Part shown: piece after piece, positions 1 through 31,188 of the stretch
Layout of the letters: every line of letters begins with the position of its first letter
Numbering within the stretch: the stretch's first letter is position 1
Source of the DNA: a virus
Taxonomy: Duplodnaviria; Caudoviricetes
Strand: one strand, 5' to 3'
Length of the DNA stretch: 31,196 nt
Virus record (IMG/VR): IMGVR_UViG_3300005100_000005
Span: 1-31,196 of that record
Made by a program: the position numbers and the translations under genes
Notes under the pieces: generated by a model
Told to the model about the DNA's origin: nothing
Database searches by the model: none
What the model saw: the letters and a program-made list of their open reading frames with translations, nothing else

Positions 1-1022
1 TCATATTTGCAAACGTTATCATCAACCATGGCCTTATATAATTTTGCCTGCGTGCCCGTCATTTTATGCTCCACCGTCTTGAACTTTAATTCTGCAAGCT
101 CTAATTCACCCTCACGTCTGATCACATATGGTCTCAGTATTTTCTCCAAGGCATTACTTTCACTTGCCTTCACGCCAGTAATCTTAAGGCCAAAACCATC
201 ATCTGAGACGTTACAGAACCTGAAAGTGAATCCCCAGAATGACCCGAACCTATCTGGATCAATCAGCGAGATCAATGCCCAGATGTCCTCTACCGAATTC
301 ACTGTAGGGCTTGCCGTGAGCAAAAATACATTCACTCTGCGCGCAATCTTTCTAGCTGCCTTATACATTCCAGTCTTCCGGTTTCTGAGCTTATGCGCTT
401 CATCTACAATGAGCAAATCATCCTCATGAAATTCTTTCAGCAGATCGTCAATATGCATCTGCATCACATTAAAATTCATTATCAGGTAACCGCCTTCATC
501 ATGCCATAATGCCAAGGCAGCCCTCCGGTCCCCGGCATCCCCGGTCAATCTAATCGTGTTTGCCTTGATCCACTGCTTAATATGAGTATCCCAATCTGCA
601 ATTTTAGATTCAGGAACAACTACGATCGCTTTCTCTGGTCGAAGCTGCCCAGCGGCAACAACAGCCGTAACTGTTTTGCCAAGCCCTTGAGAGTCTGCAA
701 GGATTCCACGCTTGATTACAGTTAACCATTTAACTGCCACTCTCTGATATGCCATAAGGCCATCTACCCCAGGCAAATCTTTAGTTGATTTAATAACGTC
801 TAATCCTTTCTGCCAGGCCAAAACATCATTGAATCTATCGCCCAACTCCTCATCTATGATTACATTCTCATCTGAAGTCACGATCCTTCTAGCAATATCT
901 CCACACACTGGAAAATTCCAGAGGTTCTTCTGCTTGCGGAACTGCATCAATTCTCTGGGGACGTCTTTGCCTTCGGATCTAAAAATCATGCGCCCGCGAT
1001 TATTCAAAGTAAGCGTGCTCAT
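1..1022 (-). CDS. SNF2/SF2 DEAH-box helicase, C-terminus runs off the window
   Basis: Not in the ORF track because it has no stop in the window. Hand translation from ATG 1022 gives LMAYQ, GILADSQGLGKT (Walker A), IVVVP, LIVDEAH (Walker B) and LLTASP (motif III). ATGA overlap with the upstream stop. Confidence 0.92.
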   Translation of the reverse strand, partial: MSTLTLNNRGRMIFRSEGKDVPRELMQFRKQKNLWNFPVCGDIARRIVTSDENVIIDEELGDRFNDVLAWQKGLDVIKSTKDLPGVDGLMAYQRVAVKWLTVIKRGILADSQGLGKTVTAVVAAGQLRPEKAIVVVPESKIADWDTHIKQWIKANTIRLTGDAGDRRAALALWHDEGGYLIMNFNVMQMHIDDLLKEFHEDDLLIVDEAHKLRNRKTGMYKAARKIARRVNVFLLTASPTVNSVEDIWALISLIDPDRFGSFWGFTFRFCNVSDDGFGLKITGVKASESNALEKILRPYVIRREGELELAELKFKTVEHKMTGTQAKLYKAMVDDNVCKY

Positions 1023-1426
1023 AATTCATCAACCTTCAATCCGCAGTGCCATCCAGACTCAACGATACCATTTTTTAGCAGATAGTACAGAAGATGTGCC
1101 GTAGCGCTCCGAATATGTGATATCTTGATATCATCCGGGACATGCCGCATCATAGTCTTCAAGACCGTTGGTGACTGGAGCACGCAGGGGATCGCATTTT
1201 CTTCGCAGATATATTCAATGACCCCGATCTGCTTGATCGCTGAATGATAATCTGATGGTTTACCGCGCCTAATAAAAAAATTCTCCACGACAACAGTGTC
1301 TGGGTGAAAAAATGTAATTAATTTATTAAGCTCAACATATTTTTTCACAGTCTGCCCTTTTACTCTACCGTTTGAGTAAAGAGCTACACCGATCGTATCG
1401 CCAGGATCTATCGCTAGAATGATCAT
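1019..1426 (-). CDS. RuvC-like Holliday junction resolvase
   Basis: MIILAIDPG..IGVA, VVVEN and a C-terminal HIRSATAH. Start placed at ATG 1426 because it overlaps the HNH stop (ATGA). Confidence 0.8.
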   Translation of the reverse strand: MIILAIDPGDTIGVALYSNGRVKGQTVKKYVELNKLITFFHPDTVVVENFFIRRGKPSDYHSAIKQIGVIEYICEENAIPCVLQSPTVLKTMMRHVPDDIKISHIRSATAHLLYYLLKNGIVESGWHCGLKVDEL

Positions 1427-1914
1427 ATGTCCACCGCGATCCGCTTGATGGCGTAACATTCAAGACGTCTTTCACCTGCTACTTTGCGCATTGCTTTGCC
1501 TTTCTCAGAAGCAGCATATTTTGCAGCGGCCACTTTACCTTTTTCAGATGCAGCGTATCGTGCTTTAGTAAGCTTACCCCTTGCAGACTGCCTGTAGATT
1601 TTAGCCAAAGCTCTAACTGCTTCTGTCGCATCTGCTTTTCTTTGTGCAGCCCTACCTTTCTCAGATTGCTTATAGGTTCTGGCTGAAATTTTACCCGCTT
1701 CGGATGCAGCATGAATTTTATTAGAAATTTTTTTAGCTGGAGATCTATTCTTTGCTGCATTAGAAATCCATTTAGGTATAGGTTTAAAACCATTAGCTCG
1801 ATCCTCACGGTGCACTTTTTTATGTTCTACACGAGAAAGTATAATGATTTCGTCTTCACCATGGATTTCTTTATACCGTATGTGATGTTGTTCAAGTTTA
1901 GTCATTTTAATCAC
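1423..1914 (-). CDS. HNH-type (homing-like) endonuclease with basic C-terminal repeats
   Basis: N-terminal QHHIRY...IILSRVEHKKVH, followed by four YxxS(E/A)(K/R)G repeats. Confidence 0.65.
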   Translation of the reverse strand: MIKMTKLEQHHIRYKEIHGEDEIIILSRVEHKKVHREDRANGFKPIPKWISNAAKNRSPAKKISNKIHAASEAGKISARTYKQSEKGRAAQRKADATEAVRALAKIYRQSARGKLTKARYAASEKGKVAAAKYAASEKGKAMRKVAGERRLECYAIKRIAVDI

Positions 1915-2195
1915 TCAATTCGTGTTATAGAATAACTCTCGAGTCGTGCGCCCATATCATCCATATCATCTGCCGTAGTGTCCTGACTATTTATCTTGAA
2001 TTCCGCTGTGGGGTATGGAATAGCGATCGTATAATATCTAAAAGCAAGCGCAGCCATGTAAATGGGCAACCTGCCATATACCTCTTTTCCCATTATATCA
2101 ACATCTACTACTCTTGATTTCACCTCACCAATGATTCCACGTCGATTGAGCCATTCGATGATGCCTTCATGCCTAGTGACTATGACAATATCCAC
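1911..2195 (-). CDS. csx16: Csx16 (Cas_VVA1548)-like protein, putative cyclic oligoadenylate ring nuclease
   Basis: 94 aa with IVTRHEG..EWL, VYGRLP..MAA and a C-terminal D.M...GARLESY, matching the recalled Csx16 pattern (SRHxGAxEW, GxLP, GARLxxY). Confidence 0.8.
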   Translation of the reverse strand: MDIVIVTRHEGIIEWLNRRGIIGEVKSRVVDVDIMGKEVYGRLPIYMAALAFRYYTIAIPYPTAEFKINSQDTTADDMDDMGARLESYSITRIE

Positions 2196-2196
2196 G

Positions 2197-2343
2197 CTAA
2201 AACGTCCTTAGGTCAATTTGCTGAATACCAAATCTATACCTGCACAGACTGCATATGTATTTAGTCCCGGTACTGCGGTCTGATGTCAATAAAAATGCCG
2301 TCCCGCCGCACTTAGGGCACGCTTTGTTTTCAATGCTCGCCAT
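2197..2343 (-). CDS. 48-aa zinc-ribbon protein
   Basis: Hand-translated MASIENKACPKCGGTAFLLTSDRSTGTKYICSLCRYRFGIQQIDLRTF. CxxC...CxxC, with an AGGAGA RBS upstream. Confidence 0.8.
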   Translation of the reverse strand: MASIENKACPKCGGTAFLLTSDRSTGTKYICSLCRYRFGIQQIDLRTF

Positions 2344-2390
2344 ATTTTATTTTCTCCTGATATCATTTAACTACTCTTGATATTTTATCC

Positions 2391-2411
2391 CCATTTATAT
2401 ATATACTTACC
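2391..2411 (-). promoter_or_regulatory. Putative TATA-box promoter of the left early-type operon
   Basis: Minus strand GGTAAGTATATATATAAATGG about 50 nt upstream of ATG 2343. Resembles the GTAA(A/G)GTATAT elements at about 29930 and 30915. Confidence 0.6.
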
Positions 2412-2430: not shown

Positions 2431-2528
2431 CAAAAGGAGAAATGCCCTGACACTTCTTTTGTTGCCTAAACTAGGCAATATACACAAAATCTAACAACAA
2501 AAGAAGTGTCGGATCATTTCTCTTTTTG
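2431..2528. repeat. 34-bp imperfect inverted repeat with a 30-nt loop and a nested alternative hairpin
   Basis: Arms 2431-2464 and 2495-2528 pair at 30 of 34 positions by Watson-Crick pairing. Inner hairpin TTGCCTA-aac-TAGGCAA at 2462-2478. Confidence 0.9.
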
Positions 2529-17175: not shown

Positions 17176-17724
17176 TTACACACTCTCCACATTTATTATG
17201 CAAGTGTAGTTTCCATATGCCATTCCAACCATACCTATGTCGATCTGCCCACATTTCGAGGACTCAGCTGGGAACTCATATATTTCACCAGGAATGAATA
17301 TTATGGTATTTTCATTCACGATCTCAAATTTATCCACGACATTTCCGTCATATTCTGTGAGAGTAGGTGCACGGTACACAAACGCATCAAAATCCCTAAC
17401 AGTACCATCTGGACTGATGAACAATCCTTGATCGCATTCTATCGTGAAAACAACATTGCCCACAACGGGAGCCGGATTACAGTTATCAAACCGCAGCTTA
17501 GTACCAAAATCATCATTCTCATCCAGCACAACGTCCCAGGTATTCGTCCAATATGTTTCGTTATCGAATGGGATCAATACTTGAATTGGGCTGACGTCCG
17601 GCCCTGGGCTATCCATACTCCACCACAATTTTGCATGCGGCGTAAAAGTTATATAGACTGCTCCTGCCGCTACTCCTATCAGAAGAATTACTGCTAAAAT
17701 ACTCAATATTTTTCTTGTTATCAT
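17176..17724 (-). CDS. Secreted or membrane-anchored protein
   Basis: MITRK followed by hydrophobic ILSILAVILLIGVAAGA (signal peptide) and a beta-rich acidic domain. GAGGT RBS. Confidence 0.75.
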   Translation of the reverse strand: MITRKILSILAVILLIGVAAGAVYITFTPHAKLWWSMDSPGPDVSPIQVLIPFDNETYWTNTWDVVLDENDDFGTKLRFDNCNPAPVVGNVVFTIECDQGLFISPDGTVRDFDAFVYRAPTLTEYDGNVVDKFEIVNENTIIFIPGEIYEFPAESSKCGQIDIGMVGMAYGNYTCIINVESV

Positions 17725-18425
17725 TAAATATACCTCACTTCTGGCCTTCCATCCTCAATCACTACATATGAACACGAATCTACAAAATCCCCACAATTCA
17801 TTACCCTACCGTATTTCGCCTTAGGGCCATGCGGAACTATCCCGGGGAAGTGCGTGTGACCCATAATTACATATTTATGTTTATTTTTGACGCCGAATCT
17901 ATGTGCTGCGTCATTGATCGCTCTTATCTGCGGAGTCATGAAGTCATTCTTGCCCATACCCATATACACCGGTTTCTTCATATATTTCTGATAAATATAA
18001 GGAAAACGCGTCACTAGCCAGCCATACGCCCAAGAGTACCGCCTTTGCTGAACATCGAACTGCCAGCCATGTGTAAAGAATATCCCCTCGTGTGCAAACT
18101 CATTCGAGACACTGATATCAGCCCCACGCTCTGATTTTGGCCACAACTTCGCGAGATTATAGTCATGGTTGCCTGGGACGATCGTAACTGGGACTTTTAT
18201 TGCCGTCAACCTTAACTCTTCAATGCAGTCTTTGAATCCAGGAAGCGTTGCCTTATAAATTTTGTCAATTGGATACCTCCACAGATCAAAGATATCTCCG
18301 CAGAGAATGAGTGTATCAGCATTTTTACGTACTAGCTCAAAAAATGCAGAGATTGCATCATAATCTGCACGTTCATATCCAAGATGTAAGTCAGATGCGC
18401 AATATATTTTCATTTTTCGCCTCAT
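17724..18425 (-). CDS. Calcineurin-like metallophosphoesterase (LpxH-like)
   Basis: Complete motif set: SDLHLG, GDIFD, GNHD, THG, GHTH and NCGDF. Start may be the MKIY Met. Confidence 0.92.
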   Translation of the reverse strand: MRRKMKIYCASDLHLGYERADYDAISAFFELVRKNADTLILCGDIFDLWRYPIDKIYKATLPGFKDCIEELRLTAIKVPVTIVPGNHDYNLAKLWPKSERGADISVSNEFAHEGIFFTHGWQFDVQQRRYSWAYGWLVTRFPYIYQKYMKKPVYMGMGKNDFMTPQIRAINDAAHRFGVKNKHKYVIMGHTHFPGIVPHGPKAKYGRVMNCGDFVDSCSYVVIEDGRPEVRYI

Positions 18426-19011
18426 TTAACTCTAATATCGCAGAAAGAACTTCATCGCAGAGAACAACATAATCCTCTATCTCGATACTATTTGGAGCTC
18501 TATATGCATTCATGAGATCTCTCGAGATCATCTGCGTGATATTTCGCCCAGAACCAACAGTCCCTATCAGATTACCATTCCGGACCCATGGTGATTTTGT
18601 GACGTCCAGCCACATTGGCCCCGTATCATATTCAGCATGCTCGATAAATCGCCTAGTTGTCATAGACTTCATGACGGCATCATCAGATCTTGCGCACACA
18701 TGCGCTAATATATCATTCTCAAAATCTTTATCTACCATATTTAAAGCAGCTTCTACAGTAGAATGTAAAATAATATCTGCGCACACTTTATTCAAGAACA
18801 CAAATCTTCCATGCTTATCTTTGCCCCACACAGCTATGTCAAGTGTGTCTACAACAAGATTTAATAGCTCGAAGTGATTAAAAGACGCCACCTCAAGCTC
18901 ATCAAGCCTACCAGTGAGCGCCTCAAGATGTTTAATCCCAGAATCCTGAGAAATATCAATTTCAGTAACTGGAAATTTATTATCCTTGAATAATTTTGAG
19001 AAGAGTTTCAT
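18391..19011 (-). CDS. Stand-alone PAS-domain protein
   Basis: VWGKDKHGRFVFLN...DDAVM...WLDVTKSPW..NGNLIGTVGSGRNIT is a PAS_4/PAC pattern. No output domain. Confidence 0.88.
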   Translation of the reverse strand: MKLFSKLFKDNKFPVTEIDISQDSGIKHLEALTGRLDELEVASFNHFELLNLVVDTLDIAVWGKDKHGRFVFLNKVCADIILHSTVEAALNMVDKDFENDILAHVCARSDDAVMKSMTTRRFIEHAEYDTGPMWLDVTKSPWVRNGNLIGTVGSGRNITQMISRDLMNAYRAPNSIEIEDYVVLCDEVLSAILELNEAKNENILRI

Positions 19012-19247
19012 CTAAGAAGCAACTCCACGCTGACTACTAACACTATACTGCCGATAAAACCTGCTGCTGCACCCCACGTCGCCGCATACATCTTTAAACG
19101 CGCTATCTCGACGGCAATCCAAACATCTTTTTCAGCATTATGCTGCTCCATCTTCTCAATGGTCTCATTGAGTCGTTTAAGTTCGGCTAACGTATAGTGC
19201 CGCCACTCACTCCAGCCGTCTGTATTTGATTCGCCTGAAGCCATCAC
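19008..19247 (-). CDS. Coiled-coil plus C-terminal TM protein (XhlA/holin-like)
   Basis: LAELKRLNETIEKME coiled coil followed by hydrophobic AATWGAAAGFIGSIVLVVSV. Confidence 0.65.
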   Translation of the reverse strand: MMASGESNTDGWSEWRHYTLAELKRLNETIEKMEQHNAEKDVWIAVEIARLKMYAATWGAAAGFIGSIVLVVSVELLLR

Positions 19248-19255
19248 ACTACCCC

Positions 19256-19408
19256 CTATTTACAGAGTCCTGCGATCGCCCCGATTGTGATTCCGAAGAC
19301 CGCGTCAATTTGCTCTGTGCCCACGCCAGTGTAAAGCATAACACTGGTTGCGAAGCCCGCAACCACTACCAGGCCCACAACCGCAAATTTAGTGTCAGAG
19401 AACTCCAT
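19256..19408 (-). CDS. 50-aa two-TM membrane protein (holin-like)
   Basis: Hand-translated MEFSDTKFAVVGLVVVAGFATSVMLYTGVGTEQIDAVFGITIGAIAGLCK. GGTGA RBS. Confidence 0.7.
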   Translation of the reverse strand: MEFSDTKFAVVGLVVVAGFATSVMLYTGVGTEQIDAVFGITIGAIAGLCK

Positions 19409-19410
19409 GA

Positions 19411-19548
19411 TCACGTCACCAACATAAACTTCTGCCTTCCATTCTCCATGAATGAAATAACGTGGATCGTTACCGTGTTAGCTATTGCATCAACAGCGGT
19501 TTTTAGATCCGCTGGGCTTGCATAGACTGTCGCTACAAAATCGACCAT
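19411..19548 (-). CDS. 45-aa hypothetical protein
   Basis: Hand-translated MVDFVATVYASPADLKTAVDAIANTVTIHVISFMENGRQKFMLVT. GAGTGA RBS, tightly packed. Confidence 0.7.
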   Translation of the reverse strand: MVDFVATVYASPADLKTAVDAIANTVTIHVISFMENGRQKFMLVT

Positions 19549-19560
19549 TTTAGATCACTC

Positions 19561-19701
19561 TCATGGATTCTCTAATGCATGAATCCTAGTTTCCAGGGAC
19601 TCAAGTTCTGCATCAATCAATCCAAATTCTACAGACAGTTTTTCTGCTAAGGTGCCCTTTCGGTGCCTAAATTCTTTTGCCGTGATAGCTGTATATGCCA
19701 T
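19561..19701 (-). CDS. 46-aa coiled-coil protein
   Basis: Hand-translated MAYTAITAKEFRHRKGTLAEKLSVEFGLIDAELESLETRIHALENP. AGGAGG RBS. Confidence 0.75.
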   Translation of the reverse strand: MAYTAITAKEFRHRKGTLAEKLSVEFGLIDAELESLETRIHALENP

Positions 19702-22506: not shown

Positions 22507-22599
22507 TTAATGAGTCTTTTTCTTCTTCTTCTTTTTATCTTCATCTATGAATTTAAATTCTGAGCTATCGCCCACAAATTTTTTCTTTCGGTCTATCAT
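22507..22599 (-). CDS. 30-aa Lys-tailed peptide coupled to the MuF-ART gene
   Basis: Hand-translated MIDRKKKFVGDSSEFKFIDEDKKKKKKKTH. ATGA overlap with the MuF stop and GGAGG just upstream. Confidence 0.55.
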   Translation of the reverse strand: MIDRKKKFVGDSSEFKFIDEDKKKKKKKTH

Positions 22600-25500
22600 G
22601 TTAAGTCCTCCAATGTCATCTCATATTTCCCTTTATTGATCTTTAAAATATTTTTTATCTTGAATGCGGTATTTTTATTAAAGAGTATCTCAAGTTCCTC
22701 TTCAAGAACGGAGAGATCTCCAATAAATGTGCCTTTCTTTGACTCGATCTTCATCAGGACACTGAATTTCTCGCCAAAGATGAATTCATCAGTGATTTCT
22801 TGATTTGCAGATGATGACGTAAATGCCGGCATATGAACTTTATCATGTTCTCCAGCAACTTTTATAAAATCATCAAGATCTTTCTGAGTTCTAAAACGTA
22901 CGCCTCGATAGGACTTCCCATTAAATTTTGGCGCATCTTGCAAGAAATCACTCAGAGCATCAATATCATTTATCGCCTTATTATAAGTAGCCGGAGGTAA
23001 TTTCATTGCCTCAGGTGAATTTATACCGTGTTTCAAGATTTTATTAATATCTTTATAATCCTCTGAAGTATACCTTATTAACGTATTAGCGGATTTCAGT
23101 CTATCTTCTAGATCGAGACTCTTGACATATGCGTTCACCTTATCTTTTTCAGTCGACACATTAAATACTTCAAGACCCTTCACCTTTGTTTCTGATGAAG
23201 CAATACCAAAATTTACCTCTAGCCAATCTTCGTCACAAGTCCACACCTTTCCTTTCTTCACCAACCCAAAATCTTTATAGACAGCCGTAACAAGTTTATC
23301 ATCGACATCAACAAATTCAATCTTCTTCAAGCCTAATTTAACCATATCATCGACATTTGAGTTAACGATCGTATTGCCAAAAAATGGGTCCACTCCTGGA
23401 GTCAATTCAGCATTGACAACCTTTAACGTGTCCCCATCGATAACATGCCTAGACATCCCAAAAATTTTCTGATTCATATCAACGTAAAATTCATCATCTG
23501 GCAAGATATTACCCTTAGTGAATACTTTTGAGTCATGACTCCAACCATTTTTCTTCAAAATCTTAAAAATATCCTCAGGATCAGCAGAATCCGTCAATTC
23601 TGCAACCTTGAATATCTTACGCTGACCCTTGAGATCATTTACAGTCTTCATCTTCTTCATATCCGCAGGATCAATAGCGAATTTCTCAACTATGGGTGGT
23701 TTCTTGACTTCAGGAACTTTCTTGACTTTTTTAGCTGCGGCTACTTTCTTAGTCTTTGTCACCTTTTTAGCGACTACCGTTAAATCTTCTAGCTCAATAT
23801 CAAAATGCTTATCAGAGACCTTTATAATTTTTTTAACCTTGAATCTTGTACCTTTACCAAACAAGACCTCGGTTTCTTCCTTGAAGTCTGAGATGCCGCC
23901 GATATATGATCCGCTCTTAGATTTGATCTTCAATGTAGCAGAATAGGTTTCTCGACCAAAATATTCCGCATCAGTCCTGAGGATTGACGTTGAAGTGAAA
24001 GACGGATTGATCATTTCATCACTATCCACAATATTTTTCATATAACGATCAAATTGCACCTTATCATCGAAGCTAACACCACGATACACTTCACCTTTGA
24101 TTTTTGGAGCGCCTTTCAAATAATCATCTATATTGACAATTTCACGCTTCAAAGTAGTATGCTCCGCAATTGTCATTCGTGCCTTAACCACGTCTGAGTC
24201 AATACCATCACGCAGGGCCTGATTGATGATTTTATACCGGTCTGTCGTGTATGCATTGACCGCTGCCCTGTAATCCTTCACTTTATCTGGATCTGACTTC
24301 TCTAATTTCTTAAGATAACGTGTAATTCTTGAAGTTTCTTTTGCTCTGGAAGTCACAATAAGATCTGTCTTGCCTGAGAGCTCTTTCATCAATCCCAAGT
24401 CTGCCTTAAAAGAAGATTTAATTATCTCTGCCTGCTTCAGCCCAGCTGAATTAAAAAGTTCTATCGCAGAATCACTCCACGCCGTCACATTGATCTCCGT
24501 AGCCGCATTCGCAAGACCATCATCTGCTATGTCTCTTATTACTGCCTTACCATACTGAGGGCCGGTCAATTTTGGATTAATTTCAAGTTCTTTTATCCTT
24601 AACGTTTTACCCTTGATTTCATAACGTGATATTGCAAAAACGTTGCCGTCCTTATCTAGATGAATCACATCACTAGGTGAAATTCCACCCTTGTTGAAGG
24701 TCTTAGCATCTTTCGGCCACCCACGCTTCATTAGCTCGTCCCAATGTGCAGGATCATCATAATCTACGTTTGGAGCAAGTTTGCTAAAATTCGACGTCTT
24801 GATCTGCCGATCAGCCAATTCATCGACAATATCTATTTTTACGCCTGGAGTCTTTGCGACACTTAAACTTTTTTCAGTCAAGTCATCAAGTTCTTTAATG
24901 AGAGTTACTTTTATATCTTTTGCTACTTTCGCGTTTGTCACTATTTTCTCTACTTTTTTAACTTTCGCTATTTTTTTCACTACTGGCGCATATTCTTCCT
25001 CTCCTGGACTCACCCAATCATCTGGGATTATCGGAGCAAAGGTCCGCGTGCAGTTCGGATGTTCAAGTTCATGTGATTTTGCGTAATCCACAGACCATAT
25101 CTGGCCATTCGCTTCTCTGCAAGGCGCATCAAAATCAACACCATCCACAACTCTGACCTGAGCGATATCATTCTTATGGAATCTGTTCAGCGTGGCCTGA
25201 TTTTGGATCGTCGCCGTCTCTGTCCTTGCTATACGGACATACTCAAATTTCTTAGTCCTGATAGCAAGTTTTTCAAGATCATGCGCAACTGTCCCCGGAA
25301 CACTGTGTTTACCCCCGATGCTTGCCACCGGCTTACCTTCGGTGAGTCCTTGCTCAATTATATCATGGACTTCAGCGCGCGTTTCTTCCATTTGGTTAGC
25401 AAGCCAATCGATCCTCTGACCACGGATTACCGTTCCACCGGTCTCTTTGAGTAATTTTTTATATTTTCTGCCAAAAATTAGTGCTTCAGCTTGAACTTCA

Positions 25501-25649
25501 TTCTTGCCGATTGGTATGTGAAGCATTCGGTGCGCTAAAATATCGCCGTCTACATGCGCTTTAATAGCGTTTACTGTAGCCGAGCTTATCAGACTCTGTT
25601 TATAATTTTCAAGCGCCTTGTTAACTGCTTCTTCAGTTGCTTTCTTCAT
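22596..25649 (-). CDS. MuF (SPP1 gp7-like) minor head protein fused to two [GNAT-like + ADP-ribosyltransferase] units
   Basis: MuF motifs RIARTET...C..ANG...HPNC. ART1 has VYRG / FTSTS / EETEVL. ART2 has SYRG / FTSSS / EELEIL. Confidence 0.9.
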   Translation of the reverse strand: MKKATEEAVNKALENYKQSLISSATVNAIKAHVDGDILAHRMLHIPIGKNEVQAEALIFGRKYKKLLKETGGTVIRGQRIDWLANQMEETRAEVHDIIEQGLTEGKPVASIGGKHSVPGTVAHDLEKLAIRTKKFEYVRIARTETATIQNQATLNRFHKNDIAQVRVVDGVDFDAPCREANGQIWSVDYAKSHELEHPNCTRTFAPIIPDDWVSPGEEEYAPVVKKIAKVKKVEKIVTNAKVAKDIKVTLIKELDDLTEKSLSVAKTPGVKIDIVDELADRQIKTSNFSKLAPNVDYDDPAHWDELMKRGWPKDAKTFNKGGISPSDVIHLDKDGNVFAISRYEIKGKTLRIKELEINPKLTGPQYGKAVIRDIADDGLANAATEINVTAWSDSAIELFNSAGLKQAEIIKSSFKADLGLMKELSGKTDLIVTSRAKETSRITRYLKKLEKSDPDKVKDYRAAVNAYTTDRYKIINQALRDGIDSDVVKARMTIAEHTTLKREIVNIDDYLKGAPKIKGEVYRGVSFDDKVQFDRYMKNIVDSDEMINPSFTSTSILRTDAEYFGRETYSATLKIKSKSGSYIGGISDFKEETEVLFGKGTRFKVKKIIKVSDKHFDIELEDLTVVAKKVTKTKKVAAAKKVKKVPEVKKPPIVEKFAIDPADMKKMKTVNDLKGQRKIFKVAELTDSADPEDIFKILKKNGWSHDSKVFTKGNILPDDEFYVDMNQKIFGMSRHVIDGDTLKVVNAELTPGVDPFFGNTIVNSNVDDMVKLGLKKIEFVDVDDKLVTAVYKDFGLVKKGKVWTCDEDWLEVNFGIASSETKVKGLEVFNVSTEKDKVNAYVKSLDLEDRLKSANTLIRYTSEDYKDINKILKHGINSPEAMKLPPATYNKAINDIDALSDFLQDAPKFNGKSYRGVRFRTQKDLDDFIKVAGEHDKVHMPAFTSSSANQEITDEFIFGEKFSVLMKIESKKGTFIGDLSVLEEELEILFNKNTAFKIKNILKINKGKYEMTLEDLT

Positions 25650-27096
25650 CCTCTTTTTCCATAGCGTCTATCAGATCATCCGCAAGTTTTCTGCCGACAG
25701 AAATAATTTCTGCCGCGGCTATATTTATGCTTGTGTTTGTAGCAGAAGTTGCTTTTAAAGCGCTTTCCGCTTTATTTTTTTCTTCTTTTTCCTTTTTTCT
25801 CTTTGCGTCATCGTCATCTCCATCTACTCCTCCAGGCAGTTGTGCTCCGAACGGCATTGCCGGAACATGGCTAGCCCAAAAATCAGCTATCTCTTCTAAT
25901 TCCTCATCCGTTAACTCCTCTTGCCCAAGGAGTGCACGAAGTTCATTCGCTCCAAGTACTTTTCCGCTTCTGCCTTCGGCAGCTCTCTGAATATCTATCT
26001 CAGAGGTATCAATTTCTGGCGCTGGAATCTTTAGACGAACTATGTAATCATCATACCCATTTACGTCAAGAAATCTCTGAAGAATTGCGCTCGCCCAATC
26101 TTCAAGCCCTATATATACTGACTTGATGTTCCGCAGAATCATCAGCATACGCTGGACATCGGAGCCGCCTATTCTCGCCCCATCATTGCCCTGGGAGAGT
26201 AAATCGATCGAAGTCGTGTAATCAATAAGCATTTGATTCAGTGCCTCAACGACTTCAAGATTATTAGCATCATCCTTAATTTTGGGATCGATTAACTCCA
26301 TATTCCCGCGTAGAGGAAAACTGTTATTTTTGCCCCAATATTTCAGGATAAGTCGCCCAGCCTCCAAATCTGATACGCCCTCATTCAGTCCGGATGCTGG
26401 CATTGGATCAGTGATCTTGAGGAATAGTAATTTCGCTCCTACACGGTTCACCTGCTGCATCTGAGTTTTCCAGGTATAGCCTAACATATTGATAATCGGT
26501 ATGAGCGGCAATAAAATCGATGTACCTCCGATCTCATCTGACGTCGGATTCTTGTATATTGTAGCGCTCTTAATCTGGATTGGCTCCTCAAAATCTGCAG
26601 ATGTCTGCCAAAACTCAATCTCGCCATTCTTTCCTAGAATAATCCCAGGCAGCAACTGGCAATATACCGCCTCCTGAGCATTAAATGGCATAACCCCAAA
26701 GGAATGTGCTGGCAGATGGCGCAACTTTAGTAAAGTATATTCATTTTCGACCCAATCCCAGACTTCATTATTGATTGAGCAGCCAAACCTGAATTCGTCC
26801 ACCCACGCCATCTGGATTTTAGCCCATAAGGCAACGTCTGGGGCATCGCACATGCGCATCATAGATAATTCAAGCTTCTCATCTTGATTCCCGCTAGGAT
26901 CAGTGACTTCAAGCGCAAATTTATCGCTAAAAAGCATATTTCTCTGCTTCATCATCAGCCCGCGTGCATACACGTTGTCACTGAGATCAAGAATTTTTTG
27001 TGGAGTGACTTCTGGAGCGACATAATATTCTCCTGTGGATGACAGATATACATCACCTTCTACTCTAGTCTTCATAACTTTCGTATCTTTTGTCAT
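25633..27096 (-). CDS. Portal protein
   Basis: 487 aa between terL and MuF, with C-terminal LGANELRALLG..EL motif. Confidence 0.8.
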   Translation of the reverse strand: MTKDTKVMKTRVEGDVYLSSTGEYYVAPEVTPQKILDLSDNVYARGLMMKQRNMLFSDKFALEVTDPSGNQDEKLELSMMRMCDAPDVALWAKIQMAWVDEFRFGCSINNEVWDWVENEYTLLKLRHLPAHSFGVMPFNAQEAVYCQLLPGIILGKNGEIEFWQTSADFEEPIQIKSATIYKNPTSDEIGGTSILLPLIPIINMLGYTWKTQMQQVNRVGAKLLFLKITDPMPASGLNEGVSDLEAGRLILKYWGKNNSFPLRGNMELIDPKIKDDANNLEVVEALNQMLIDYTTSIDLLSQGNDGARIGGSDVQRMLMILRNIKSVYIGLEDWASAILQRFLDVNGYDDYIVRLKIPAPEIDTSEIDIQRAAEGRSGKVLGANELRALLGQEELTDEELEEIADFWASHVPAMPFGAQLPGGVDGDDDDAKRKKEKEEKNKAESALKATSATNTSINIAAAEIISVGRKLADDLIDAMEKEDEESN

Positions 27097-28969: not shown

Positions 28970-29116
28970 TCACACATAAATATCAAAGAAGTAAGGCTTA
29001 GCGCCATTCAGCGGGAAACGCATCATTGAAGGATTACAGTTAATCAAGATTAAGTTCCCACGTGACATCTGCCCTCGTTGCTCCACAAAAAAGTAAAGGG
29101 AGTTAATGTATCCCAT
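28970..29116 (-). CDS. 48-aa protein D' (paralogue of 29127-29279)
   Basis: MGYINSLYFFVEQRGQMSRGNLILINCNPSMMRFPLNGAKPYFFDIYV. GAGGTG RBS. Confidence 0.75.
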   Translation of the reverse strand: MGYINSLYFFVEQRGQMSRGNLILINCNPSMMRFPLNGAKPYFFDIYV

Positions 29117-29126
29117 GTTCACACCT

Positions 29127-29279
29127 CTATAGATAGATACTGACTGTGTAAGGATCTACTTTCATGCTCAATGAAAATCTCATCAGCTCCGGATTGCATC
29201 CAATGGAAATCACGTGTCCACGTGCATTTTGTGAGTTAGTGTGCTCATAGAATTGATGAGCACCTTGCGTATATCCCAT
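29127..29279 (-). CDS. 50-aa protein D
   Basis: MGYTQGAHQFYEHTNSQNARGHVISIGCNPELMRFSLSMKVDPYTVSIYL. GAGGTG RBS. Confidence 0.75.
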   Translation of the reverse strand: MGYTQGAHQFYEHTNSQNARGHVISIGCNPELMRFSLSMKVDPYTVSIYL

Positions 29280-29281
29280 GT

Positions 29282-29443
29282 TCACACCTCATTAAGTTTT
29301 TGCTGTGAGGTCTTCAGATAGACTTGACTTACTCCGCAGGAGCACGACCAGTTAAGGAGTGTGTCCTTCTCAAGTGGAGTGCTGAAGCAGAGAGTCATTG
29401 ACTTACCGCACTCTATACAAGAAGTTTTGTAGTTAAAGGTCAT
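29282..29443 (-). CDS. 53-aa zinc-ribbon-like protein
   Basis: MTFNYKTSCIECGKSMTLCFSTPLEKDTLLNWSCSCGVSQVYLKTSQQKLNEV. GAGGTG RBS and ATGA overlap. Confidence 0.75.
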   Translation of the reverse strand: MTFNYKTSCIECGKSMTLCFSTPLEKDTLLNWSCSCGVSQVYLKTSQQKLNEV

Positions 29444-29577
29444 CTGGAGTTCACCTCGGCAGTATGTACTAAGGAGATCATTTCCATTGTCGTCATGCTC
29501 CTGACTAACTTCATTAGTTCTTCCTTAGAAAGTTTCTGAAGTTCTACGTCTGCTCTATCTCCGAGAGTTGTGTTCAT
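29440..29577 (-). CDS. 45-aa helical protein A' (near-identical paralogue of 29718-29867)
   Basis: MNTTLGDRADVELQKLSKEELMKLVRSMTTMEMISLVHTAEVNSR. GAGGTGA RBS. Confidence 0.75.
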   Translation of the reverse strand: MNTTLGDRADVELQKLSKEELMKLVRSMTTMEMISLVHTAEVNSR

Positions 29578-29583
29578 CTTGAC

Positions 29584-29721
29584 TCACCTCACCGGGAACG
29601 CTGAGGTAATTGGGGTCTCAGCGCCCAGCCTAATCTTGAGTACTTCAAGCGCCTCCTCAGGAGTGTTCCCATGGACTATGTAAATTCCTTTGAATTTTGT
29701 ATCAATTTTGTAGGCGTTCAT
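29584..29721 (-). CDS. 45-aa hypothetical protein
   Basis: MNAYKIDTKFKGIYIVHGNTPEEALEVLKIRLGAETPITSAFPVR. GAGGTG RBS and ATGA overlap. Confidence 0.75.
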   Translation of the reverse strand: MNAYKIDTKFKGIYIVHGNTPEEALEVLKIRLGAETPITSAFPVR

Positions 29722-29867
29722 CTGGAGTTCACCTCAGCAGTATGCACTAAGGAGATCATCTCCATTGTCGTCATGCTCCTGACTAACTTCTGGACAAGTT
29801 CTTCCTTAGAAAGTTTCTGGAGTTCTGCGTCTACAAGGTCTTCGAGAGTTGTGTTGTCTTTATTCAT
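29718..29867 (-). CDS. 49-aa helical protein A
   Basis: MNKDNTTLEDLVDAELQKLSKEELVQKLVRSMTTMEMISLVHTAEVNSR. Confidence 0.75.
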   Translation of the reverse strand: MNKDNTTLEDLVDAELQKLSKEELVQKLVRSMTTMEMISLVHTAEVNSR

Positions 29868-29905
29868 TGTATTTTTCCTGGGGGCTTCTGCGCCTCCAAT
29901 TAATT

Positions 29906-29935
29906 AAATGTACTTTACTCGTGATATACTTTACT
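29906..29935 (-). promoter_or_regulatory. Putative early promoter, copy 1
   Basis: Minus strand AGTAAAGTATATCACGAGTAAAGTACATTT, closely similar to 30891-30919. Confidence 0.65.
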
Positions 29936-29943
29936 TTCACTTT

Positions 29944-30120
29944 TTAGCAGGTCAACACTGCGTATGCTATCGGTTCTTCCGAATCATACAGATCATTCAT
30001 CTCCACAACACCCATAACGTGCCCTGCAACCTCACCTTCGCCATTATCGTGCATTGCTACGCCAACCGGTAGATCCTGAGGTAATTTCTTTAATCTTGAT
30101 ATCAATTCTTTCACTTTCAT
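29944..30120 (-). CDS. 58-aa small phage protein (MKVKELI..L..LP.D type)
   Basis: MKVKELISRLKKLPQDLPVGVAMHDNGEGEVAGHVMGVVEMNDLYDSEEPIAYAVLTC. Confidence 0.75.
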   Translation of the reverse strand: MKVKELISRLKKLPQDLPVGVAMHDNGEGEVAGHVMGVVEMNDLYDSEEPIAYAVLTC

Positions 30121-30243
30121 CTATAAATTCCTTCTGCATTTATATAAAAAATCCATTTCATTATACAATCTCATTATGTTTGTCCTCTGGGTCCATTTCT
30201 TGCTCCAGATTAGCCCAGGTCAACCCCGAGCCCATTTTGTGAG

Positions 30244-30411
30244 CTATTTTGGCAGATTTGGCCCGTCCTTGGCCTGACAAACTCGGCATTCGCTATAGTC
30301 CTCTTCCCAGCCATCCTCGACGCGGAATACGTCTATGAAGTCACCCTTACCGAGGAAACGTCCACATTTGTAGCAATAAAACCGCCAATTACCAATGCAC
30401 TTTTGCAACAT
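30244..30411 (-). CDS. 55-aa zinc-finger protein
   Basis: MLQKCIGNWRFYCYKCGRFLGKGDFIDVFRVEDGWEEDYSECRVCQAKDGPNLPK. TAATG coupling. Confidence 0.75.
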   Translation of the reverse strand: MLQKCIGNWRFYCYKCGRFLGKGDFIDVFRVEDGWEEDYSECRVCQAKDGPNLPK

Positions 30412-30545
30412 TATTCTAAAACTCCTACAAGGTATACGAGAAGTACTGAGATCATAGCCATGAATACTACGCCATTCAGAAGCTGAAGGAACCCAGACAC
30501 AATCAAAAGAAGCTGAATTCCAGAAATGAGATATCTTGACGTCAT
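30411..30545 (-). CDS. 44-aa hydrophobic membrane peptide
   Basis: MTSRYLISGIQLLLIVSGFLQLLNGVVFMAMISVLLVYLVGVLE. ATG 30545 overlaps the upstream stop. Confidence 0.7.
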   Translation of the reverse strand: MTSRYLISGIQLLLIVSGFLQLLNGVVFMAMISVLLVYLVGVLE

Positions 30546-30688
30546 TTCCTTACGAACCCCCTGCATGGGTCCATCTGACTGCGAAACATTGAGCAAATTC
30601 CATCGGGAGTCATGAATCTATGCGCTCTACAGATAGCGTCATATCTGGACTTCCTCTTAAAATTTAAGCAGTTATTGCAGATTGACAT
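30542..30688 (-). CDS. 48-aa Cys-rich protein
   Basis: MSICNNCLNFKRKSRYDAICRAHRFMTPDGICSMFRSQMDPCRGFVRK. GGAGG RBS. Confidence 0.7.
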   Translation of the reverse strand: MSICNNCLNFKRKSRYDAICRAHRFMTPDGICSMFRSQMDPCRGFVRK

Positions 30689-30715
30689 TGATTTCTAGCC
30701 TCCGCTCATCTTGAC

Positions 30716-30856
30716 TCACTTCAGAGTATCGACTGGGTGGAATTCTCCGCCACAGTCTTTATGCATATCTCCCTCTTTCCAAAATCTTGTAGGGTGTTCC
30801 TTGCCGCATTTACTACACTTCACCAGCATTTTTTTGCTTGTGTTGTTTCCGCTCAT
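30716..30856 (-). CDS. 46-aa zinc-ribbon protein (CxxC...HxxC)
   Basis: MSGNNTSKKMLVKCSKCGKEHPTRFWKEGDMHKDCGGEF. AGGAGA RBS before ATG 30856. Confidence 0.75.
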   Translation of the reverse strand: MSGNNTSKKMLVKCSKCGKEHPTRFWKEGDMHKDCGGEFHPVDTLK

Positions 30857-30890
30857 TTTATTTCTCCTGAGACTTCTATCCCATTGATAT

Positions 30891-30919
30891 AAATGCAATT
30901 ACTTGTGATATACCTTACT
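30891..30919 (-). promoter_or_regulatory. Putative early promoter, copy 2
   Basis: Minus strand AGTAAGGTATATCACAAGTAATTGCATTT. Confidence 0.65.
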
Positions 30920-30960
30920 CCCATAAAACCATAAACAGTGGCCTGTTAGGGCCACCGGAT

Positions 30961-31188
30961 TCAATATCTGTGCTGAACTTTCTGCACTGAGATGCCTACC
31001 AGATTCCAGTCCGCATCATTACGCCTGATTATGCCGTCATTCAGTGTCCTGAAATACATGATTCCGTTCTTTCGGCTCATTGAGAACACGTCCCGAATGG
31101 CCCGTGTCCTCTTATGCTCGCCAGTTACTTGGTGAGTTGATTCAAGAGTATACCTTCTGAGGTCAGATTTTGTCACCATTTGACTCAC
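30961..31188 (-). CDS. Small basic hypothetical protein
   Basis: 75-aa ORF. GGAGTGA upstream suggests the start is at MVTKSD. Confidence 0.6.
   Translation of the reverse strand: MSQMVTKSDLRRYTLESTHQVTGEHKRTRAIRDVFSMSRKNGIMYFRTLNDGIIRRNDADWNLVGISVQKVQHRY

Follow-up and report, generated by a model that had tools for sequence, protein, structure and literature searches.

A virus-borne Csx16-like protein as a candidate ring-nuclease anti-CRISPR

Introduction

The closest described systems to the gene analysed here are the viral anti-CRISPR AcrIII-1 (Crn2; DUF1874, PF08960), a ring nuclease that degrades cyclic tetra-adenylate (cA4), and Csx16, a protein linked to type III CRISPR loci. In AcrIII-1, His47 is catalytic, acting as general acid, and Arg66 and Arg85 contact cA4 (bioRxiv 10.1101/778746). 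One representative Csx16 fully degraded cA4 in vitro and acted on neither cA3 nor cA6, even at tenfold more protein; the same study, by Hoikkala et al. (2025), tallied two phage genomes with Csx16 out of 28,114 and reported a structural match of Csx16 to 2J6B with a Z score of 4.8 (PMC12409355). Partial similarity between Csx16 and DUF1874 is noted in a review (PMC8284326). Among further proteins acting on cyclic oligoadenylates (cOA), Csx20 shows a side activity on cA3 (PMC12409355), Crn4 has broad specificity, and some Csx15 proteins are non-enzymatic sponges (PMC13148439). A literature search covering mainly papers available without subscription returned no assayed viral Csx16 and no Csx16 mutagenesis, so the residues held to matter in this family are deduced ones.

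Homologues of Csx16 are annotated on several mobile elements. In cultured phages they occur in Methanobacterium virus Drs3 (two records) and in PhiF3, both methanogen viruses, where they are labelled putative CRISPR-associated; the Drs3 gene 00003 corresponds to AXN53384 and is annotated as Cas_VVA1548. Genes annotated as Csx16 are also found on the Asgard plasmid P-10H_0 (BDI55091) and on a Paenibacillus plasmid. The novelty that an initial annotation of the present locus attached to a viral Csx16 is lost to the two phage genomes already counted (PMC12409355) and to the annotated Drs3 and PhiF3 copies, and with viral ring nucleases and viral Csx16 both in print the surprise is modest.

In this work we analyze one such gene in its genomic context. 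The window is a stretch of 31,196 nucleotides that constitutes the whole of a linear IMG/VR record (IMGVR_UViG_3300005100_000005), with an estimated completeness of 34%, and the gene under study lies near one of its ends:

1911..2195, minus strand: csx16-like gene (PF09652), 94 aa, GTG start; viral-type, from a sub-branch without the Arg-Gly motif

The reading that we favour, with somewhat better than even confidence, is that a homodimer of this protein binds and cuts cA4, damping the type III CRISPR alarm of the host as an anti-CRISPR.

Methods

Relatives of the 94-aa protein were collected by a search yielding 367 sequences at 50% clustering. Residue counts were taken from 150 relatives, consisting of 149 of the best 150 plus P0002. 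Viral loci were obtained from three IMG/VR pattern scans returning 14, 33 and 8 loci; once repeats and the two false matches L017 and L018 are taken out, about 48 different records are left.

Two trees were inferred from 89 alignment columns with the trait columns removed: a quick tree of 218 rows and a careful tree of 58 rows. Partial sequences (L016, L036, L039) and duplicates (L011, L026) were left out, and four weak metagenome matches (L091-L094) were set aside.

Results

The virus and its probable host

Among the 49 open reading frames (ORFs) scanned in the record are terminase, capsid/head, tail-tube and tape-measure genes, which identify a head-tail virus. The best matches of the terminase among cultured phages are psiM100 and psiM2 (48%), the capsid protein matches only a Methanobacteriales virus (26%), and the putative portal (25633-27096) only one of Methanomicrobiales (38%); the tail tube matches Gordonia phages only, and weakly. 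The matches to methanogen viruses, together with a TATA-like run upstream of the gene, point to an archaeal host that is probably methanogen-related. When 101 genomes from a single methanogen order were searched with the capsid protein, no related provirus turned up, a result that, without a positive control, says nothing about the host; single-protein scans of IMG/VR with the csx16-like protein and with the capsid protein returned no close relative.

None of the 49 ORFs scanned in the window belongs to another cas family, and the window contains no RAMP gene, Rfam match or CRISPR-like array. The viral, cas-free setting described in the initial annotation is therefore confirmed, and, the record being about 34% complete, it holds for the window only.

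Several other features of the window were recorded. A 1017-aa MuF-like head-morphogenesis protein fused to one or more ADP-ribosyltransferase domains (22596-25649, minus strand) shows two Pfam stretches, the best at 459-619, and is possibly a virion-delivered host-modifying enzyme. A calcineurin-like metallophosphoesterase and a PAS-fold protein (17724-19011, minus strand) are inserted among the virion genes after the capsid gene, and the former may be another enzyme of counter-defence. Series of tiny ORFs (45-79 aa) occupy 28970-31188 and 19008-19701 (minus strand), and a recent duplication links 29440-29574 and 29718-29855 (73 nt at 96%, 59 nt at 86%).

Assignment to PF09652

The PF09652 (Cas_VVA1548) profile matches the 94-aa protein at 47.9 bits (E 1.6e-12; cut-off 25), covering model positions 2-90 of 91, and three PADLOC Csx16 models match it with E values from 3.5e-13 to 2.2e-10. 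The NCBI model for strict Csx16, TIGR02620, scores 32 bits, below its curated cut-off of 46.35. For DUF1874 (STIV_B116), the PF08960 profile found no match in the whole record, its positive control being matched in Bacillus subtilis; PHROGs hold no family for the protein, and no significant match to the Csx20, Crn4b or AcrIII-2/Crn5 families was seen. The comparison of Cas_VVA1548 with DUF1874 thus upholds the Csx16-like family originally proposed, and the protein is a member of the broad PF09652, neither the strict CRISPR-associated Csx16 nor AcrIII-1.

The TRHxG, GxLP and GARL pattern first noted in this protein is present in full, as T7-R8-H9-E-G, G41-R42-L43-P44 and G82-A-R-L, along with W15-L16. 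In the 150 relatives (best of 367, plus P0002), conservation is high at R8 (140), H9 (144), W15 and L16 (149 each), G41 (148), P44 (150), G82 (138) and A83 (142). R84 occurs in only 32 of them, so that the last element is really GAxL in the family.

The protein departs from its relatives at three further polar sites, and the initial annotation did not mention the missing Arg-Gly motif or the Arg at position 28. An Arg-Gly motif preceding the last helix is found in 25 of 26 cellular and 37 of 39 viral copies, and among the 150 relatives (best of 367, plus P0002) its site holds Arg in 128 and Gly in 125; the csx16-like protein has Lys67-Ile-Asn-Ser70 there, including a two-residue insertion. At position 28 it has Arg, the commonest residue among the same 150 being His (80), which is present in 25 of 26 cellular copies. 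Arg42, the x of GxLP, is shared with 1 of the 150. A relative of 68% identity, P0002, also has Arg28, Arg42 and an insertion of the same length, with Arg instead of Lys67.

Predicted fold and dimer

The AlphaFold2 model of the protein has a mean pLDDT of 94.7 and a pTM of 0.83. Foldseek returned nothing at E<=0.001 against BFVD and PDB. A VIA search over 48,161 chains placed AFV3-109 on top (2j6c, residues 37-109; Z 5.2, rmsd 2.5, 72 aligned; below the caution mark of 8), in agreement with the Z of 4.8 reported between Csx16 and 2J6B; next, level with unrelated rows, came the C-terminal region of Csx1-Crn2 (Z 4.1, rmsd 2.7, 72 aligned). With DUF1874, represented by an alignment of 18 rows, HHalign gave no significant similarity (probability 1%, E 0.055). 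The separation from AcrIII-1 made in the initial annotation is accordingly sound by profile, for the family, and probably not for the fold, since the best solved match is of the AcrIII-1 family and the closest solved folds are AcrIII-1 and Crn2. Matches to DARPin/ankyrin in the PDB sequence search were rejected as spurious, arising from a short G-x-P-L-H-L-A-A-like stretch (7 of 7; 63-row profile, best 60 of 185), and no solved Csx16 was among the matches listed in the PDB sequence and profile search.

A homodimer is also predicted. The homodimer score is 0.73 against 0.00 for the best control, with runs agreeing on at least 96% of contacts and a pLDDT of at least 84; out of 30 solved homodimers 20 come up to this mark, as does 1 monomer out of 23, and the score, which may reflect likeness to solved dimers, bears on dimerisation and not on ligand binding. 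The predicted interface comprises residues 45-49, 53-58 and 85-94, with the two chains joined by their C-terminal strands (85-94) and the 45-49 helix at the axis. Two relatives, P0003 and P0052, are Csx16 proteins with two domains in tandem, in effect pseudo-dimers in a single chain, as would fit a working unit that is a dimer.

Viral and cellular relatives

TIGR02620 detects 39 of 43 IMG/VR ORFs at E<=0.01 and scores one of the 43 above its cut-off. Dozens of uncultivated viruses thus carry Csx16, nearly all below the NCBI cut-off, and the count of two phage genomes understates the family. No cas domain was found in the 111 ORFs neighbouring viral csx16 genes (chosen from 154 candidates, mostly same-strand), and a RAMP gene, beside a PAPS-reductase gene, is present in 1 of the 43 records. 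Of 26 loci from cellular genomes, by contrast, 20 carry a cas gene within their nearest large ORFs (up to four per locus); these loci were collected with a single motif pattern, come largely from proteobacteria and are thus a biased sample. The three clusters nearest to the protein in the ESM Atlas belong to Cas_VVA1548, and the members on record there come from viruses.

The proposal that the virus had captured a host-type enzyme finds no support in these relatives. Identity to the csx16-like protein has a median of 29% for the 26 cellular copies and of 33% (best 45%) for 39 viral ones. Both trees separate the cas-linked copies from the csx16-like protein, which sits among dozens of viral homologues. 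The careful tree unites 16 cas-linked rows in one clade (97/96) and leaves the csx16-like protein outside it, in a 12-row branch (96/91). That branch also includes the protein of a virus-like metagenome locus (L090) and a cluster of which one member is annotated as coming from a Caudoviricetes genome. A position outside the cas-linked clade is therefore what the best tree gives; the AU test does not reject joining the protein to that clade as sister (p 0.231), and the bootstrap is not fully settled. On these results, and with the tree unrooted, a recent acquisition from a host cas locus lacks support without being refuted, and descent of the gene within a virus lineage is the likelier history.

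What is distinctive here is a sub-branch of 12 proteins that mostly keeps Thr-Arg-His, lacks Arg-Gly and mostly has Arg or Lys at position 28: a contiguous Arg-Gly occurs in 0 of the 12, Arg or Lys at 28 in 9, and His is kept in 10. The two proteins that have lost the His are P0100 and P0149, the former also being fused to a helix-turn-helix (HTH), which indicates that the branch can drift to non-enzymatic roles.

Some individual loci merit description. The Csx16 profile was detected in 1 of 401 genomes sampled from the phylum of a Methanoregula genome, and that one was the Methanoregula genome itself. A Methanoregula copy (L053:7163-7474), whose four nearest ORFs include no cas gene, clusters with Drs3 and a viral copy, L015 (99/96), and is probably of viral origin. 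A viral mini CRISPR array of six 37-nt repeats (L036:599-996) lies about 4 kb from an internally deleted csx16 of 70 aa (L036:4965-5177). A complete phage genome combines csx16 with a RAMP gene beside a PAPS-reductase gene (L095:4343-6904; G008, same record as L012), which we take to resemble a type IV-B module. Pentapeptide-repeat genes adjoin viral csx16 in L010, L012, L024 and L028, and DUF6011 genes do so in L019 and L031. Repeats near viral csx16 in L010, L012 and L042, considered as CRISPR candidates, are coding repeats instead.

The surrounding putative transcription unit

Following the tail genes and a 345-bp gap, the gene order is Zn-ribbon, csx16-like, 163-aa ORF, RuvC-like and SNF2, with these elements around the csx16-like gene:

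2431..2528, no strand assigned: 34-bp inverted repeat, arms 2431-2464 and 2495-2528, 30-nt spacer; 88% complementary
2394..2405, minus strand: TATA-box-like run, candidate archaeal-type promoter about 50 nt upstream of the first ATG (sequence seen, function putative)
2354..2358, minus strand: AGGAG, a ribosome-binding-like site before the Zn-ribbon ATG (sequence seen, function putative)
2197..2343, minus strand: Zn-ribbon ORF, 48 aa, first gene of the unit; weak Zn-ribbon matches below cut-off
1423..1914, minus strand: 163-aa ORF overlapping the csx16 stop; basic, with a His-rich HNH-like N-terminus (by eye only)
1019..1459, minus strand: RuvC-like Holliday junction resolvase; PHROG 1770, E 2.3e-9; 45% identical to the L090 copy
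3..1022, minus strand: SNF2-type helicase, cut by the contig end; PF00176, E 3e-31; 53% identical to the L090 copy

Just upstream of the TATA-like run, the inverted repeat separates it from the last tail gene. Its arms match at 30 of 34 positions, against a best of 22 in 60 shuffles, and its DNA fold has a z of -7.5, with 0 of 200 shuffles as good; it may serve as a terminator for the tail genes, as an operator or as part of an origin. The leaders preceding 19701 and the Zn-ribbon gene are similar to each other (35 nt, 71%).

The L090 locus, one of five metagenome loci fetched, has the same gene order without the 163-aa ORF, and its run continues with a PD-(D/E)XK nuclease and then an AAA ATPase. 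Its identities to the window are 33% for the Zn-ribbon, 43% for csx16, 45% for RuvC and 53% for SNF2, the Zn-ribbon ORF, also 5' of csx16 there, aligning with L090:106-276 over 45 aa (E 6e-7 pairwise). As csx16 and its neighbours have diverged equally, the comparison would suggest inheritance within the virus lineage. The 163-aa ORF contains 39-nt internal repeats and has no Pfam, PHROG, NCBIfam or PADLOC match and no tblastn match in L090; because it is missing at the same place in L090, it is probably an inserted mobile gene, endonuclease-like by eye. The initial annotation had made csx16 the second gene of an early-type operon. It is indeed the second ORF, behind the Zn-ribbon gene after the 345-bp gap; the "early" part is deduced solely from the downstream RuvC-like and SNF2 genes.

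Discussion

We propose that the csx16-like gene is expressed early or in the middle of infection with the recombination genes, and that its product, as a dimer, binds cA4 across the two-fold axis or cleft. His9 would act as general acid, like His47 of AcrIII-1, and Arg28 together with the unusual Arg42 would provide phosphate contacts that normally come from the arginine of the lost Arg-Gly motif. The spacing of 19 between His9 and Arg28 equals that between His47 and Arg66 in AcrIII-1, a correspondence resting on spacing and on the aligned range. With cA4 cleaved, effectors that depend on it would be activated less during infection. An anti-defence role is in keeping with viruses carrying an off-switch enzyme as a stand-alone gene, and by analogy the protein probably works like both Csx16 and AcrIII-1. 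The cA4 ring-nuclease anti-CRISPR put forward in the initial annotation is thus kept as the most likely role, with activity less certain than was implied, since the highly conserved Arg-Gly motif is missing.

That loss is also the starting point for the alternative that survives best, which we nevertheless regard as fairly unlikely: the protein may bind cA4 or another cyclic oligoadenylate and cut it slowly or not at all, serving as a viral sponge or as a stand-alone sensor domain that relatives fuse to an excisionase-type HTH so that infection genes respond to type III signalling. Arg-Gly is intact in 0 of 12 members of the supported sub-branch, and some Csx15 proteins are non-enzymatic sponges (PMC13148439). 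Six of the 150 relatives (best of 367, plus P0002), namely P0016, P0058, P0074, P0093, P0100 and P0132, carry an N-terminal excisionase-type HTH_17 domain; all six have Arg28, five lack Arg-Gly, and the quick tree groups them with the csx16-like protein in a 28-row branch (SH-aLRT 86). Such fusions are candidate cOA-responsive regulators or self-regulating anti-CRISPRs, and the promoter-like run in the window is preceded by a strong inverted repeat. The careful tree, however, places only P0100 inside the 12-row sub-branch and leaves the other five at an unresolved base (55/87), and the csx16-like protein itself has no HTH. Its putative catalytic Thr-Arg-His is intact, with the His present in 10 of the 12, and PMC13148439 argues that a sponge may be of no avail against type III systems, given how much cOA they produce. 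A scan of IMG/VR with the HTH fusion P0058 returned no close relative.

A change of specificity is less probable again. The protein would be an active phosphodiesterase whose altered pocket (Arg28, Arg42, Lys67 and the two-residue loop insertion) prefers cA3, cA6 or a CBASS-type cyclic oligonucleotide. The substitutions hit conserved polar positions and co-occur, with Arg or Lys at position 28 in 21 of 32 rows without Arg-Gly against 8 of 158 rows with it, and related ring nucleases have a cA3 side activity (Csx20; PMC12409355) or broad specificity (Crn4). The co-occurrence (Fisher p 7e-14) comes mostly from one lineage and is not phylogenetically independent, with only 3 independent pairs and a sign test p of about 0.5, so we do not claim Arg28 as compensation for the loss of Arg-Gly. 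Moreover, a two-fold symmetric predicted dimer would suit cA4 best, and the assayed Csx16 is cA4-specific even at tenfold more protein (PMC12409355).

Slightly more doubtful still is an unrelated viral housekeeping role, such as nucleotide or RNA handling, in a recombination and replication operon with no CRISPR link. It would account for the fixed position of the gene heading a RuvC-SNF2(-PD-(D/E)XK nuclease-AAA ATPase) run in two contigs, and for a csx16 that diverges at about the same rate as its neighbours, unlike a hot-swapped anti-CRISPR. Against this, some 40 other viral loci have variable neighbours, mostly small unknown genes and not the RuvC-SNF2 module; the SIRV1 AcrIII-1 gene likewise lies two genes from a Holliday junction resolvase; and the characterised members of the fold group described in PMC12409355, PMC8284326 and bioRxiv 10.1101/778746 all act on cOA. 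That the gene is a decaying, non-functional remnant is very improbable: a conserved motif is lost and the score lies below the TIGR02620 cut-off, but the frame is intact and tightly coupled to both neighbours, the 68%-identical P0002 shares Arg28, Arg42 and the length of the insertion, the model and dimer prediction are confident, and the same gene is present in L090.

If the favoured cA4-cutting activity is present, Csx16 becomes a further tested family of viral ring-nuclease anti-CRISPRs. The natural variant with Arg28 and without Arg-Gly also offers a probe of the Csx16 mechanism, asking whether the Arg-Gly arginine or His28 is needed, and the wide viral spread of Csx16 reopens the question of whether cellular Csx16 was domesticated from viruses. 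A bolder reading, which we advance only tentatively, sees here an undescribed viral Csx16 sub-branch with a rewired pocket (Arg28 in, Arg-Gly out), either with changed specificity or as a cOA sensor, fused to HTH in relatives, that would let viruses read the type III alarm and adjust recombination or replication genes; more broadly, Csx16 would be mainly viral and the cas-linked clade domesticated from it, as proposed for AcrIII-1 and Crn2.

Set beside known systems, the protein resembles Csx16 (PF09652, TIGR02620) in its whole-length Pfam and PADLOC match, in the S/T-R-H, W-L, GxLP and GAxL motifs, in its predicted dimer and in having a best structural neighbour of the AcrIII-1 type. Unlike cas-linked Csx16, it is encoded by a virus apart from cas genes, scores below the TIGR02620 cut-off and branches outside the cas-linked clade, and it has Arg28 for His28, Lys-Ile-Asn-Ser for Arg-Gly and Arg at the x of GxLP. 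Like the copies of Drs3, PhiF3 and P-10H_0, its gene is a Csx16-family member that stands alone, with no cas genes nearby, in the genome of an archaeal virus or other mobile element. Its identity to the Drs3 protein is 34% over 59 aa only, and the Drs3 and P-10H_0 copies keep His28 and Arg-Gly and branch elsewhere.

The likeness to AcrIII-1 and Crn2 lies in the proposed role, in the best solved structural match and in a His followed by an Arg 19 residues on, with a weakly similar C-terminal G-x-x-L-T-x-E-E stretch in AcrIII-1. Residues invariant in 18 of 18 aligned AcrIII-1 sequences (SIRV1 gp29 numbering) are N8-A9-F10-S11, G46-H47, N65-R66 and R85-L86-x-E88-G89, and of these the csx16-like protein shares the His-to-Arg spacing only: it differs from AcrIII-1 in having neither the N-terminal Asn-Ala-Phe-Ser segment nor the Arg-Leu-x-Glu-Gly lid, and in matching no PF08960 profile. 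The counter-defence logic proposed here, in which cOA would be destroyed from a mobile element, is that of Csx20 (four phage genomes), Crn4b and AcrIII-2/Crn5; unlike Crn4, which has a novel fold, and AcrIII-2, a SAVED protein, the csx16-like protein would bring a different family to it.
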